Source: a virus
Lineage: Duplodnaviria; Heunggongvirae; Uroviricota; Caudoviricetes
Direction: 5' to 3' (one strand)
IMG/VR virus record: IMGVR_UViG_2740892423_000003
Length of the DNA stretch: 5,377 bases
How positions within the stretch are numbered: the stretch's first letter is position 1; each line of letters starts with the position of its first letter. Under the pieces are notes generated by a model. That model did no database searches, was not told where the DNA came from, and worked only from the letters and a program-made list of their open reading frames with translations. The position numbers and the translations under genes are program-made. Below, piece after piece: positions 1 to 5,377 of this stretch.

Positions 1-638
1 GAGAAACGCGCCACACTCTGGCTGATGGACGCAATCTGAGCCTCACCGCTTACCCCCGCCTTAACCAGTGCGCTGAGTGACTCGCTGGTCTGGTCAAACG
101 TCAGCCCTGCCGCCTGCCCGGCTCTGGACAGGACCAGCATGCGATCTGCCGTCAGTCCCGCCTGATTGCCGGAAAGGACCAGCGTTTTGTTGAAATCGGA
201 CAGGGTTGAGTTGCCCTGATACCAGGCATACGCCAGCGCACCGGTCGCCACCGCCAGCGAGGTGGCCCCCACCATCGGCAGGGTGATCGCACCGGCAAGC
301 CCCCTGAACATGGGGATCATCCCGCCGAAGGAGTCCTTCACCTGCCCCCCCTGTTGCAGCAGGATCAGCCACGGACTTTGCCCGCCTGCAAGCTGCGTGG
401 CCACGTCGGTGAACTGTGCAGGCAGCATACGCATGGCGGCTTTATACTGCCCGACGGAAATCCCCGCTTTCTGTGCAGCCAGCGCCTGTCGGCTCAGCGA
501 CTGTTCAACGACTGCCGCTGTTTTTTTCGCATCACTTTCCGTACCGGAAAAATGACGCCTGACTCTGGCCATCTGCTCGTCAAATCTGGCCGCATCCAGA
601 CTCAAATCAACGACCAGATCGCCTACCGGTTCAGCCAT
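1..638 (-). CDS. H: Tail tape-measure protein H, N-terminal part only (about 212 codons); the gene runs off the window at position 1
   Basis: Reverse-complement of 600..638 translates MAEPVGDLVVDLS from an ATG at 636..638, preceded by AGGAGGAG. The frame stays open to position 1 and spot translations (GLAGAITLPMVGATSLAVATG, ALAYAWYQGNSTLSDFNKTLVLSGNQAGLTADRMLVLSRAGQAAGLTF) match lambda gpH as I recall it. It is absent from the ORF track because no stop lies in the window. Confidence 0.92.
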   Translation of the reverse strand, partial: MAEPVGDLVVDLSLDAARFDEQMARVRRHFSGTESDAKKTAAVVEQSLSRQALAAQKAGISVGQYKAAMRMLPAQFTDVATQLAGGQSPWLILLQQGGQVKDSFGGMIPMFRGLAGAITLPMVGATSLAVATGALAYAWYQGNSTLSDFNKTLVLSGNQAGLTADRMLVLSRAGQAAGLTFDQTSESLSALVKAGVSGEAQIASISQSVARF

Positions 639-1065: not shown

Positions 1066-1469
1066 TTTCCCGCAGAAACAGGCTCTGCAGGCCCGGCGTC
1101 CTCTGCCTGTTCAGGTGCATCATTCACCACAAACTCATACATACCGGACAACCGGTACACCACGTTTTCAGCATGAGAAATTGCCTCTGTGGGCCAGGTG
1201 GTAAGCACTTCCTGCTCAATCTGTTTAACGGCTTCATTCATGGACGGCTGCGTTGTCTTCTGTGGATGGTTATGCCACAGGGACATCGCCACCACAAAAG
1301 CACCGGTTCTGATGGCGTCTTCCACAGTAAACTTCCGGTTGCTGTCTGACTCCGCCTGTTCTGCCTGCCGTTTCATCAGGGCGAGATGCTCAATACGCTG
1401 CAGGGCTGACAGTTCAGAAAGCGTGACGGTCACGCCGTTATGTTCAAATGATTCGGTTTTCAGGAACAT
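1047..1469 (-). CDS. G: Tail assembly chaperone G
   Basis: 140-aa ORF MFLKTESFEHNGVTVTLSELSALQRIEHLALMKRQAEQ…SAGKCSTVS, same length and near-identical to lambda gpG as I recall it. ATG at 1467..1469 is preceded by GGAGAA. Confidence 0.95.
   Translation of the reverse strand: MFLKTESFEHNGVTVTLSELSALQRIEHLALMKRQAEQAESDSNRKFTVEDAIRTGAFVVAMSLWHNHPQKTTQPSMNEAVKQIEQEVLTTWPTEAISHAENVVYRLSGMYEFVVNDAPEQAEDAGPAEPVSAGKCSTVS
1065..1071 (-). promoter_or_regulatory. -1 programmed ribosomal frameshift slippery heptamer G GGA AAG (G to G-T)
   Basis: Plus strand 1065..1071 reads ctttccc, i.e. GGGAAAG on the coding strand, sitting on the Gly-Lys codons of …SAGKCSTVS* nine codons before the G stop. This is the classic lambda G/GT slip position. 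Confidence 0.85.
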
Positions 1470-2628: not shown

Positions 2629-3203
2629 CGCTTTATTACCATTCTCAGTTGATGCTGCAGCGCATAGCCCAGCTCTTTCGGAAGACGTTCACGCCGTATC
2701 CGTTCAATATTCTGTTTAAACGCCGTGGTCAGCGGCACCGCCATCGGGATTTTCACCACATCAATGGGGTAACGGTTTTTCCCGGCCACACGCTGCATGA
2801 CATGCCACCGGCCATTTTTCAGTTGCTGAATAAACGCGCCGGGAATACGACGGTTTCCCACCACAAGCACACTGCCGCCACCTTTCAGGGCTGAACGCTG
2901 CCCCTTTTTACGACGCCTGCGTCGAGACAGGACAACCCGCGCGTTACCCAGCTTTATTACGGGCAAATCCCCCCGGCTAACCCTGATTCTGGCCTGCGGA
3001 TTTTTGACCGTGGCCCTTTTCAGCCTGGCCCTTTCCTTTACCAGTTTCCGGCGTACCTTTGTCTCACGGGCAACCTGTGCCACCGACTGCGATATCGCGG
3101 ATGAAGCAACGCGGTTAATGGCCATTGCGGCGGCACCGGGCACCGCCGTTCTGCTGATACGGCTGAGGTTTTCAACGGCCTGCTCAAGACCTTTTATGGC
3201 CAT
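2625..3203 (-). CDS. Z: Tail completion/assembly protein Z
   Basis: 192-aa ORF MAIKGLEQAVENLSRISRTAVPGAAAMAINRVASSAISQS…[11 protein letters not shown], same length and near-identical to lambda gpZ. ATG at 3201..3203 is preceded by AAGGGGGA. Confidence 0.95.
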   Translation of the reverse strand: MAIKGLEQAVENLSRISRTAVPGAAAMAINRVASSAISQSVAQVARETKVRRKLVKERARLKRATVKNPQARIRVSRGDLPVIKLGNARVVLSRRRRRKKGQRSALKGGGSVLVVGNRRIPGAFIQQLKNGRWHVMQRVAGKNRYPIDVVKIPMAVPLTTAFKQNIERIRRERLPKELGYALQHQLRMVIKR

Positions 3204-3214
3204 ACATCCCCCTT

Positions 3215-3568
3215 TCAGCGGCGACGGTTAACGGCAGGCGGTACGCCCCGCCCAAGCCAGAGATGACAGCTTCCGCCATCATCCGGCGAAATCCGGTCCA
3301 CCCAGAAGTTTTCCTCGCCGATGGTCAGTGTGTCTCCACGCCGCAGCTGCCGCACCTCATCAGTCCGGACAAACAGGGACGGGCTGGAGCCTTCAACGCG
3401 CACGCCCTGTCCGGCATAGCTGATATTTTCAGGGTCATCAAAAACACCACGTATCACAGCACCTGACTGCTCACCGGATGTCATGGTGGCTGACGTTCCC
3501 ATGTACCCGCGTATCGTTTCATCGGCGCGGGCAATGGCAGCATCGAACAGGTTATCGAAATCAGCCAC
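3215..3568 (-). CDS. FII: Head-tail joining (head completion) protein FII, complete copy
   Basis: 117-aa ORF MADFDNLFDAAIARADETIRGYMGTSAT…HLWLGRGVPPAVNRRR matching lambda gpFII. The start codon is GTG (plus-strand cac at 3566..3568), preceded by GGGAGG. Confidence 0.92.
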   Translation of the reverse strand: MADFDNLFDAAIARADETIRGYMGTSATMTSGEQSGAVIRGVFDDPENISYAGQGVRVEGSSPSLFVRTDEVRQLRRGDTLTIGEENFWVDRISPDDGGSCHLWLGRGVPPAVNRRR

Positions 3569-3863
3569 AGCGCCTCCCGTTATTGCATTCTGGCCAGGCC
3601 GCGCTCTGTCATTTCGGCTGCCACACCGGCAGAGACACGAAACGCCGTTCCCGGCAGCACAAATGCCACAGGTTTATCCCGCGTGGCGTGAAGTGCATCA
3701 GTATGCAGCGTCACCAGTGCCACGACCGTGACCAGTTCAGCCGTATCCTGAATCACGGTATCCGTCTGTGCTGATACCACCTCATTTTCATGTCCGGTCA
3801 GTGCATTTTCCGGGCTGACAGACGTGTCCTGACCGGCTGCGTCATCCGTGTCATCAAGCTCCT
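3299..3863. repeat. Direct repeat copy 1 (FII 5' part + FI-FII junction + FI 3' part), ~565 bp, abutting the gap
   Basis: Aligns collinearly with 3874..4435 at an offset of 572-575 bp. I counted about 16 substitutions and one 3-bp indel by eye, about 97% identity. Confidence 0.9.
3580..3863 (-). pseudogene. FI: FI 3' fragment (C-terminal ~93 codons), 5'-truncated at the N-gap; a diverged duplicate of 4155..4435
   Basis: Translation …ELDDTDDAAGQDTSVSPENALTGHENEVVSAQTDTVIQDTAELVTVVALVTLHTDALHATRDKPVAFVLPGTAFRVSAGVAAEMTERGLARMQ*. It is ~97% identical in DNA to the 3' end of the complete FI gene, with a 3-bp indel that adds one Gln. It is cut off at the N run, so it is either a contig-end partial or a gene fragment. 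Confidence 0.75.
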
Positions 3864-3873
3864 NNNNNNNNNN
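3864..3873. other. Assembly gap: run of 10 N
   Basis: Ten consecutive n characters in the sequence, a conventional placeholder for a scaffold gap of unknown size. Confidence 0.98.
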
Positions 3874-4143
3874 TATCCAGAAGTTTTCCTCACCGATGGT
3901 CAGCGTGTCGCCGCGCCGCAGCTGCCGCACATCATCAGTCCGGACAAACAGGGACGGGCTGGAGCCTTCAACGCGCACGCCCTGTCCGGCATAGCTGATA
4001 TTTTCAGGGTCATCAAAAACACCACGTATCACAGCACCGGACAGCTCACCGGATGTCATGGTGGCTGACGTTCCCATGTACCCGCGTATCGTTTCATCGG
4101 CGCGGGCAATGGCAGCATCGAACAGGTTATCGGAATCAGCCAC
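3874..4143 (-). pseudogene. FII: FII 5' fragment (N-terminal 90 codons), 3'-truncated at the N-gap; a diverged duplicate of 3299..3568
   Basis: Translation MADSDNLFDAAIARADETIRGYMGTSATMTSGELSGAVIRGVFDDPENISYAGQGVRVEGSSPSLFVRTDDVRQLRRGDTLTIGEENFWI, then N. GTG start at 4141..4143 with the same GGGAGG upstream as the complete copy. Differences from 3215..3568 are mostly synonymous. Confidence 0.75.
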
Positions 4144-4435
4144 AGCGCCTCCCGTTATTGCATTCTGGCCAGGCCATGTTCTGTCATTTCGGCTGCCACA
4201 CCGGCAGAGACACGAAACGCCGTTCCCGGCAGCACAAATGCCACAGGCTCATCCCGCGTGGCGTGAAGTGCATCAGTATGCAGCGTCACCAGTGCCACGA
4301 CCGTGACCAGAGCAGCCGTATCAATCACGGTATCCGGCTGCGCTGATACCACCTCATTTTCATGTCCGGTCAGTGCATTTTCCGGGCTGACAGACGTGTC
4401 CTGACCGGCTGCGTCATCCGTGTCATCAAGCTCCT
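3874..4435. repeat. Direct repeat copy 2 (FII 5' part + FI-FII junction + FI 3' part), ~562 bp, abutting the gap
   Basis: Same alignment as copy 1. The repeat begins exactly at the first base after the N run and copy 1 ends exactly at the last base before it. Confidence 0.9.
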
Positions 4436-4550
4436 CTTCCAGCTCTGCCACACGGAGCGCCAGTTCTTCTTTCGTCCCCGTCAGGCTGACATCACGGTTC
4501 AGTTGCTCACCCAGCGACCGGAGACGGGCAATCAGTTCATCTTTCGTCAT
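4155..4550 (-). CDS. FI: DNA packaging / head assembly protein FI (131 aa)
   Basis: The internal ATG at 4548..4550 gives MTKDELIARLRSLGEQLNRDVSLTGTKEELALRVAELEEELDD…GLARMQ, matching the lambda gpFI N-terminus and length, with GGAGGAG immediately upstream. The track's longer ORF starts at a GTG at 4589, inside the E-FI hairpin region, and is probably not used. Confidence 0.92.
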   Translation of the reverse strand: MTKDELIARLRSLGEQLNRDVSLTGTKEELALRVAELEEELDDTDDAAGQDTSVSPENALTGHENEVVSAQPDTVIDTAALVTVVALVTLHTDALHATRDEPVAFVLPGTAFRVSAGVAAEMTEHGLARMQ

Positions 4551-4560
4551 GAACTCCTCC

Positions 4561-4591
4561 ACAGAGAGAAAATGGCCCCGAAGGGCCACGA
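4561..4591 (-). terminator. Candidate stem-loop (UUCG tetraloop) plus U-rich tract in the E-FI intergenic region; a possible partial terminator or mRNA-stabilising hairpin
   Basis: Coding-strand RNA just 3' of the E stop reads UCGUGGCCC-UUCG-GGGCCAUUUUCUCUCUGUGGAGGAGUUCAUG. GGCCC/GGGCC forms a 5-bp GC stem closed as C(UUCG)G, extendable to about 7 bp, followed by AUUUUCUCUCU. Function is inferred, not shown. Confidence 0.35.
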
Positions 4592-5377
4592 TTACGCCAG
4601 TTGTACGGAAACGAACTCATCAGGGTCAGCCAGCAGCATCAGCGGTGCTGACTGAATCATGGTGAACTCACGCGCCGGATCGCCGGTGGTCACCCAGTTT
4701 TTCGGGTAACGGGCAGAGGCGTTAATGCCTTCGCGCTGTGCGTCCGCATCCTGAATGCAGCCATAGGTGCGCAGACCGCGAGCCTGAGTGTTCCCCAGCA
4801 CCATCGTGTTGTCCGGCAGGAAGTTCTTTTTGACGCCGTTTTCCACGTACTGTCCGGAATACACGACGATGGCCACATCGCCATACATTCCCTTATAGGA
4901 CACCGCTTTGCCCAGGTCTTTTACCGCTGTCTCCAGCTCGGAATGAGAGCCGCGACGGGTATCCAGCTTCTCCCTGACGGCTTTGAAGGAACGGAACAGC
5001 GCCCAGCCTTTCGGATCGAACACGATGATATTCACCACGCCGCTGGCGTTCAGCGCGTAGGCTTCGATATCGTCGGTCGGGTCATACGTGGACTTGTCAC
5101 GCTTGCTCCACTCCGTGCTGCCGGACTGCGTGATGTTGTTCGCCGCACTGCGGCCCATATCCACCTCAACCGGATCGAAGGCTTCACCGGTCATGGTGTA
5201 TTTGCCCTTGAGCACGGCAGAAACGGCCTGCATCTCTTCGACCTGAGCAATGGCCAGCTCTTCGTCTCGCATGTTCTGCATGATGATGCGACGGCGGCGG
5301 TAAGCCGGGTCCGCCAGATTCTGCGGATCTTCATCCGGCAGGCGACGCAGGGTCATCTGCGGATTCACCTCATGCTT
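4592..5377 (-). CDS. E: Major capsid protein E, C-terminal ~261 codons; the N-terminus lies beyond the window end
   Basis: Translation …KHEVNPQMTLRRLPDEDPQNLADPAYRRRRIIMQNMRDEELAIAQVEEMQAV…PLMLLADPDEFVSVQLA* matches the C-terminal two-thirds of lambda gpE as I recall it. The frame is open to the window edge at 5377. The track's M at 5368 is an internal GTG (Val), not the true start. Stop TAA at 4592..4594. Confidence 0.95.
   Translation of the reverse strand, partial: KHEVNPQMTLRRLPDEDPQNLADPAYRRRRIIMQNMRDEELAIAQVEEMQAVSAVLKGKYTMTGEAFDPVEVDMGRSAANNITQSGSTEWSKRDKSTYDPTDDIEAYALNASGVVNIIVFDPKGWALFRSFKAVREKLDTRRGSHSELETAVKDLGKAVSYKGMYGDVAIVVYSGQYVENGVKKNFLPDNTMVLGNTQARGLRTYGCIQDADAQREGINASARYPKNWVTTGDPAREFTMIQSAPLMLLADPDEFVSVQLA

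Follow-up and report, generated by a model that had tools for sequence, protein, structure and literature searches.

The spacer between the major capsid gene E and gene FI of a lambda-like prophage encodes a GC-rich RNA hairpin that, judged from its sequence, clearly looks like a selected, RNA-level and strand-specific element of terminator architecture, oriented for the late transcript. Selection at the RNA level is suggested because the position of the hairpin is kept in relatives whose stems are unrelated, because the loops are of the UNCG and GNRA types, and because the tail on the 3' side is enriched in T. As to its role, the reading that we favor, tentatively and with slightly less than even confidence, is that of a weak terminator which is bypassed under the control of the antiterminator Q and which, as a hairpin in the mRNA, shields E at its 3' end; we infer the read-through, the barrier function and the size of the effect. 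The hairpin by itself matters little, since the sequence is essentially that of phage lambda and homologues of the hairpin are annotated in other phages.

Setting and stability of the hairpin

The stretch of DNA analysed here, referred to as the window, is 5,377 nucleotides long. Its open reading frames identify it as the morphogenetic, or late, operon of a prophage resembling lambda, carried on the minus strand in the order E (the 3' three-quarters), FI, FII, Z, U, V, G and T, and continuing into H. The window is about 97% identical to positions 6375..11179 of phage lambda; many lambdoid phages also match, and 3,411 of 5,426 complete E. coli genomes contain sequence matching the window. The features around the E-FI junction are collected in Table 1. 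The E-FI spacer is the sole intergenic spacer longer than 15 nt within the window, and the V-G spacer, at 15 nt, has no comparable hairpin. Two nucleotides separate the E stop codon from the start of the hairpin, and the Shine-Dalgarno sequence of FI (GGAGGAG) is near-ideal and is followed by 3 nt (UUC) before the FI AUG. A first-pass annotation had described the spacer as GGCCC-UUCG-GGGCC, extended by U-A and G-U pairs and followed by AUUUUCUCUCU and then GGAGGAG; read on the minus strand, this description is exact.

Table 1. Features at the E-FI junction, in window coordinates.
Feature	Coordinates	Strand	Basis or remark
Major capsid gene E, 3' part	4592..5377	-	Runs off the window end; ORF list and lambda E annotation
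E stop codon UAA	4594..4592	-	Sequence reading
E-FI spacer, 41 nt	4591..4551	-	Sequence reading
Predicted terminator-type RNA hairpin	4572..4589	-	Lambda equivalent 7163-7180; folding and conservation
Stem 5' arm, GUGGCCC	4589..4583	-	
Loop, UUCG	4582..4579	-	
Stem 3' arm, GGGCCAU	4578..4572	-	
U/pyrimidine-rich tail UUUCUCUCUGU, interrupted U tract	4571..4561	-	Sequence reading, terminator scan
FI Shine-Dalgarno sequence, GGAGGAG	4560..4554	-	GGAG-type in relatives too
FI gene (DNA-packaging chaperone), 131 aa	4155..4550	-	Translation aligns end to end with lambda FI
FI AUG	4550..4548	-	Sequence reading

The window also contains an apparent tandem duplication of 572-575 bp (3302-3863 and 3877-4435). 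The two copies are 97-98% identical, extend from the 3' portion of FI into the 5' portion of FII, and flank a run of 10 Ns at 3864-3873. The duplication gives rise to a chimeric ORF of 187 codons (3580..4143, minus strand) that joins the N-terminus of FII, across the gap, to the C-terminus of FI. It is absent from lambda and from the best-matching complete E. coli genomes, in which a 1451-nt query covers only about 876 bp. The duplication is most likely a scaffolding artefact produced from the overlapping contig ends of similar prophages, and not biology.

Folding with ViennaRNA gave the 18-nt hairpin a predicted energy of -12.6 kcal/mol alone and -13.2 kcal/mol in context, and its 5-bp core one of -9.6 kcal/mol. 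With 7 bp, five G-C pairs and a C(UUCG)G tetraloop, it is a G+C-rich stem-loop of the kind found in intrinsic terminators, whose stems have about 5-14 bp and whose loops have 3-8 nt. In a simple terminator scan it was the best of 8 sites in the window (7 pairs, 5 G-C, loop of 4, tail TTTCTCTCTG), and its antisense version lacks a U tail. Intrinsic terminators characteristically have an unbroken or almost unbroken U tract of about 7-9 nt right past the stem. The tail here, UUUCUCUCU, consists of three proximal U followed by alternating C and U; it is interrupted, yet it passes the scan at a lenient threshold of at least 5 T in 8. The U tract reads UUUCUCUC in the window and UGUUUCUC in lambda, and both are interrupted; the lambda tail is UGUUUCUCU, and the lambda hairpin differs from that of the window only by an A in place of a G in the outermost pair (A-U vs G-U). 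The earlier caution that an interrupted U tract argues against strong termination seems to us reasonable.

The energy of the hairpin alone is unremarkable for GC-rich DNA. Its 61-nt neighbourhood folded with z = -1.05, which is not beyond chance, and the number of terminator-like sites in the window (8 vs 4.4 +/- 2.6 in shuffles) is not significant. About 10 hairpins of -12 to -15 kcal/mol occur on the transcript strand of this GC-rich window. The E-FI hairpin is the second most stable 24-nt fold on that strand (top 0.2% of windows) and, among the listed top folds, the only one to fall in non-coding sequence. This rank, the location in a non-coding spacer and the retention of the position across relatives together argue that the hairpin is beyond chance.

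Two other folds on the transcript strand lie in coding sequence or touch a known signal. The most stable 24-nt fold (CGGCGGUGC-CCG-GUGCCGCCG, -15.2 kcal/mol) is at 3149..3126 of the minus strand, in the 5' part of Z. A hairpin of -13.0 kcal/mol (CCUGCAGAG-CCUGU-UUCUGCGGG) is at 1091..1068 of the minus strand, and its 3' arm overlaps the slippery sequence GGGAAAG (1073..1067) of the G-T frameshift.

Several other classes of element were considered for the E-FI hairpin. A search of the window with the Rfam 15 covariance models at E <= 1 returned no relevant family for it, and the only match in the window was to an irrelevant miRNA model (272..331, 22.5 bits against a gathering score of 60). An RNase III site was rejected on the grounds that the stem has 7 bp, that no longer helix is predicted around it, and that about 20 bp (two helical turns) are required. 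A REP/BIME element was rejected for want of likeness to the consensus of such elements. A DNA-level palindrome or protein-binding site was rejected as the primary reading in view of the strand-specific T-rich tail and of loops belonging to the RNA-stabilizing UNCG and GNRA types.

Conservation among lambda relatives

A search of viral contigs with lambda E returned only loci that are 99-100% identical in E and that are therefore informative on polymorphism only; wider diversity was drawn from species-representative genomes and phage records. The lambda-clade set comprised 80 loci (E 99-100% identical), which reduced to 12 spacer haplotypes. Nine of the 41 spacer sites vary among these haplotypes, and none of the nine is at spacer positions 4-20, which make up the stem-loop minus its outermost 5' base (p = 0.004). 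The single variable stem base changes between A and G and still pairs in all cases (A-U or G-U). Variation is concentrated in the tail and the Shine-Dalgarno sequence, the tail being the most variable part of the spacer.

A capsid-gene sequence 100% identical to lambda E also turned up in assemblies of unrelated organisms, often on low-coverage contigs; these include Chromatium, Neobacillus, Kitasatospora, Paenibacillus, Shewanella, Pseudomonas, Leeuwenhoekiella and others. Such copies are almost certainly contamination by lambda control DNA.

Relatives with alignable spacers came from Kluyvera, Citrobacter, Klebsiella, Enterobacter, N15, HK225 and others, and their capsid proteins are mostly 87-90% identical to lambda E, with one at 74%. 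In this group, the GGCCC/GGGCC core hardly varies, despite divergent flanks and changes in spacer length. The outer pairs covary: one is AU, GU or GC, and the other changes from UA to CG in four sequences. Altogether, 93.6% of cells in the alignment are paired, vs 38-58% when the 3' partner is slid; the 93.6% is slightly reduced by an Erwinia sequence that the MAFFT alignment of the GGCCC group shifts by one base.

Beyond these relatives, we found a GC hairpin at the same place in nearly all of 38 distinct E-family capsid loci, which span 26-100% protein identity. The stems of distant loci cannot be aligned and were therefore compared by position and energy, and the statistics over loci take no account of shared ancestry. 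Lambdoid prophages whose capsid proteins are 56-74% identical to lambda E carry different GC stems, located 0-29 nt past the stop codon; examples are ACGGGGGC-GAAAU-GCCCCCGU, CGGCGGG-GAAA-CCCGCCG, GAGCC-GAAA-GGCUC, GCAUGCCCC-UGAAU-GGGGCAUG and GGGGC-UUCG-GCCCC, and many of the hairpins in this group have canonical tails of U5-U8. Across 35 distinct loci, the best hairpin has a mean energy of -13.4 kcal/mol, vs -7.35 kcal/mol in shuffles. Even in Chi, Sano, Vibrio K242, UF_RH7 and RcMcLean, whose capsid proteins are 26-35% identical to lambda E, a strong GC hairpin follows the capsid gene in five of five cases, mostly with a poor U tail.

The loops and tails of the 38 loci also follow a pattern. 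UUCG (15 loci, on four unrelated stems) and other tetraloops of the UNCG and GNRA types make up most of the loops. The 8 nt on the 3' side of the stem contain a mean of 4.37 T, vs 2.24 in the 8 nt on the 5' side and 1.66 expected from coding composition (Wilcoxon p ~1e-6 for the enrichment across the 38 loci, with kinship among loci ignored). Tails vary widely, with at least 5 T in 8 in 18 of the 38 loci and at most 3 in 11, and the U tracts of relatives span U8 to none.

Annotated homologues and the hairpin before E

The E-FI hairpin is already known as a putative terminator through the annotations of relatives, and to that extent it is an ordinary feature. In the N15 record (AF064539), a stem_loop at 7053..7073, just past the gene for the major head protein, bears the label "putative rho-indep. 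transcription terminator", and the HK225 record (JQ086371) annotates the homologous hairpin at 7009..7028 as a "rho-independent terminator". The lambda reference record gives coding sequences only at this place, and the hairpin is unannotated there. The N15 and HK225 hairpins resemble that of the window in being placed between an E-type capsid gene and an FI-type gene, in their GGCCC/GGGCC core and in having a partner terminator between D and E. They differ from it in the loop (AUUC or UGUC vs UUCG), in the closing pair (G-C vs G-U), in the tail (CUUUCUGG, which is poorer still in U) and in the length of the spacer (45 nt vs 41 nt). The terminator annotations in both records are themselves predictions.

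Both records also annotate this second terminator between the D-type and E-type genes. In lambda, the D-E spacer (NC_001416, about 6080-6134, outside the window) holds a textbook terminator, AAAGGCCGCC-UGUG-CGGCUUUUUUU, made up of an A-tract, a GCCGCC-UGUG-CGGC stem and a U7 tract. An element of the same A-tract, GC-stem and U-tract composition lies 5' of the capsid gene in nearly all of the lambdoid loci, with varied stems and a mean energy of -12.1 kcal/mol vs -4.1 kcal/mol in shuffles. Gene E is thus bracketed by two predicted hairpins of terminator type, one in the D-E and one in the E-FI spacer.

Terminators of this kind have precedents in other phages. The P22-like phage L has a predicted intrinsic terminator within its antiterminated late operon, and such terminators are described as not unique to L and as having roles that are not known (PMC8022706). 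The L element is like that of lambda in being an intrinsic terminator just past capsid-building genes (a procapsid module) in a lambdoid late operon, but the capsid family is unrelated (P22 coat, not lambda E) and the elements share no sequence homology. In T7 (T-phi) and LUZ100, a strong terminator stands right past the major capsid gene and is thought to control capsid expression (PMC10134795). There too a stable hairpin terminator directly follows the most highly expressed structural gene. The T7-like terminators, however, are described as strong, act on the single-subunit RNA polymerase of the phage, are paired with a promoter close by and work without antitermination, whereas the lambda E-FI element is weak by sequence and lies in a Q-antiterminated transcript. 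Terminator-like hairpins are widespread in antiterminated phage late operons and recur right past the capsid gene (PMC8022706). The pair in the D-E and E-FI spacers of lambda is genetically tractable, and mutations in the two intergenic regions could separate effects on termination, mRNA stabilization and insulation.

Possible roles in the late transcript

The first-pass annotation had read the hairpin as a leaky intrinsic terminator or a barrier to 3' exonucleases, either of which might help explain the excess of E over FI. The assignment of the hairpin to the intrinsic-terminator type stands, on the basis of architecture, conservation and the N15 and HK225 annotations; its proposed share in the E:FI ratio is doubtful. 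Lambdoid late genes are transcribed by RNA polymerase carrying Q, for which neither intrinsic terminators nor Rho-dependent ones are an obstacle (PMC4914094); the RNA exit channel is narrower when Q is bound (PMC12360218). We reason that the D-E and E-FI elements are probably read through efficiently, because the better terminator of the two sits 5' of E, the gene whose product is needed most. Polarity on downstream genes is therefore unlikely as a purpose that the two elements share; if polarity were set in this way, it is the most abundant protein that would suffer. FI, with its near-ideal Shine-Dalgarno sequence, does not look like a gene that is kept at a low level. In addition, translation initiation is reported to control how strongly the lambda late genes are expressed relative to one another (Sampson et al. 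1988, PNAS 85:5439). In view of Q bypass, the stronger terminator before E, the FI Shine-Dalgarno sequence and translation initiation, the hairpin probably plays no major part in the surplus of E relative to FI. Data on transcript 3' ends, coverage or half-lives at the E-FI junction of lambda did not come up in our literature searches.

In the reading that we favor, the hairpin would be an intrinsic-terminator-type mark at the 3' end of the major capsid cistron of lambda-like late operons. During lytic growth, Q-modified polymerase would read through both the D-E and the E-FI elements, and termination at E-FI would amount to no more than a minor leak, caused by polymerases that never acquired Q or have shed it. 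The main effect of the E-FI hairpin would instead be post-transcriptional: the GC stem with its UUCG tetraloop would fold in the mRNA. If a 3' end then formed past the hairpin, whether because some polymerases still stopped in the U-rich tail or because an endonuclease cleaved the single-stranded U-rich stretch or a site beyond it, 3'-to-5' exonucleases would degrade the RNA back to the stem and halt there. The E segment would thus be longer-lived than the message downstream of it, and the D segment would be preserved likewise by the hairpin that follows it. The effect would probably be modest, because the large differences between late proteins would be set mainly by translation initiation.

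Stem-loops are known to act in this way in bacterial operons. The REP sequence between malE and malF of E. coli and the hairpins between pufA and pufL of Rhodobacter capsulatus block 3' exonucleases, so that the more highly expressed upstream cistron lives longer. REP elements recur at many places in the chromosome as longer, imperfect palindromes, and the mal and puf hairpins resemble the E-FI hairpin in the action proposed for it, which is a prediction here, and not by any sequence relationship.

As expected of a stabilizing hairpin, a stable stem-loop is found in the spacer 3' of E, and a partner follows D. The constancy of the hairpin and the variability of the U tail fit a function that needs the hairpin more than it needs RNA release, and loops of stability-enhancing types fit a barrier. 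D and E are, moreover, the two most abundant virion proteins, and a barrier reading fits the presence of hairpins after exactly these two genes when the other spacers of the window are at most 15 nt long. Read-through in the lytic cycle would be required, because a canonical terminator stands just 5' of E, and this agrees with the biology of Q. Several points count against a barrier. T-enriched tails suggest selection for actual termination, which argues against a pure barrier. Because the hairpin lies 2 nt past the stop codon of the heavily translated E gene, it has to be unwound again and again by terminating ribosomes. Gene V, which encodes the major tail protein, is also highly expressed and has no such hairpin. 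Any stability effect may also be small, because translation initiation is reported to control the ratios of late-gene products.

A bolder form of the proposal is that the D-E and E-FI hairpins constitute a conserved "capsid mRNA cassette", in which processed mRNA segments encoding the shell proteins, within an antiterminated polycistronic transcript, would be protected from exonucleases and the selected role would not be termination. This idea, possible but on the doubtful side, is suggested by the retention of a hairpin past the capsid gene at 26-35% capsid identity even where the U tract has been lost. If true, it would answer what the terminators within late operons are for.

Two alternatives keep termination itself as the function. 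The E-FI hairpin might be a leaky terminator that sets polarity, with some polymerases, even Q-modified ones, stopping at E-FI and leaving less mRNA for the genes past E. The hairpin and its U tail do pass the terminator scan, tails are T-enriched across the 38 loci with canonical U5-U8 in many relatives, and the N15 and HK225 homologues are annotated as putative rho-independent terminators; partial termination is also one of the two options offered for the terminators within the late operons of phages L and P22 (PMC8022706), and a strong T-phi-type terminator stands right past the capsid gene in T7-like phages (PMC10134795). However, the Q-loaded elongation complex, with its narrowed RNA exit channel, bypasses intrinsic terminators, the U tract is interrupted in the lambda clade, expression is still needed of every tail gene, all of which are located past the hairpin, and the stronger, canonical terminator 5' of E means that the two elements cannot both be there for polarity. 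We consider a leaky terminator unlikely. Read-through by Q-modified polymerase is no objection to the other alternative, namely that the pair flanking E serves as a safety device, keeping polymerases without Q from spurious or read-through transcription, whether in the lysogen or during early infection, and so confining capsid synthesis to times when Q is available. Conservation of the whole architecture, T-rich tail included, would be expected of such a device, and the D-E partner, with its A-tract and U-tract, looks bidirectional. Yet a safety function leaves unexplained why only two elements occur in a 20-kb operon, exactly past D and E; U tails are poor in 11 of the 38 loci and in most of the distant phages; the E-FI element of the lambda clade is weak by sequence; and the window contains 0 promoter-like sites that would need insulation. 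This explanation, too, strikes us as improbable.

That the hairpin has no function, being a chance palindrome in GC-rich DNA that persists by shared ancestry, can hardly be right. The unexceptional z score of the 61-nt neighbourhood, the roughly 10 comparable hairpins in the window and a count of terminator-like sites within the range of shuffles are what this explanation would predict, but it does not account for a position kept with unrelated stems at capsid identities down to 26%, for covarying outer pairs, for a stem free of polymorphism or for a T-rich tail on one strand. A role in translation is very unlikely, if less so. The hairpin might uncouple FI initiation from the ribosomes that terminate on E, whose stop codon is only 2 nt away, or the pyrimidine tail might mask the FI Shine-Dalgarno sequence: the minimum free energy (MFE) fold pairs UUUCUCU (4571..4565) with GGAGGAG (4560..4554) on the minus strand, through 7 pairs, and N15-type spacers have an outer helix, UCC(A/C)...(U/C)GGA, around the hairpin, which pairs with the downstream GGAG. 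The masking helix of the window is weak, though, with four G-U pairs and an MFE frequency of 0.21, and lambda is predicted to fold differently. In haplotypes that alter both tail and Shine-Dalgarno sequence (UGUCUCUCU with GGAGAAG), the changes, judged by eye, do not compensate for one another in that register. A pyrimidine tail is, by its composition, expected to complement a purine-rich Shine-Dalgarno sequence, and it is the GC hairpin that is conserved, not the tail. The outer helix of the N15 type, seen in the N15 spacer and also in loci L106, L108 and L111, may be either a structure that masks the Shine-Dalgarno sequence or an accident of composition.
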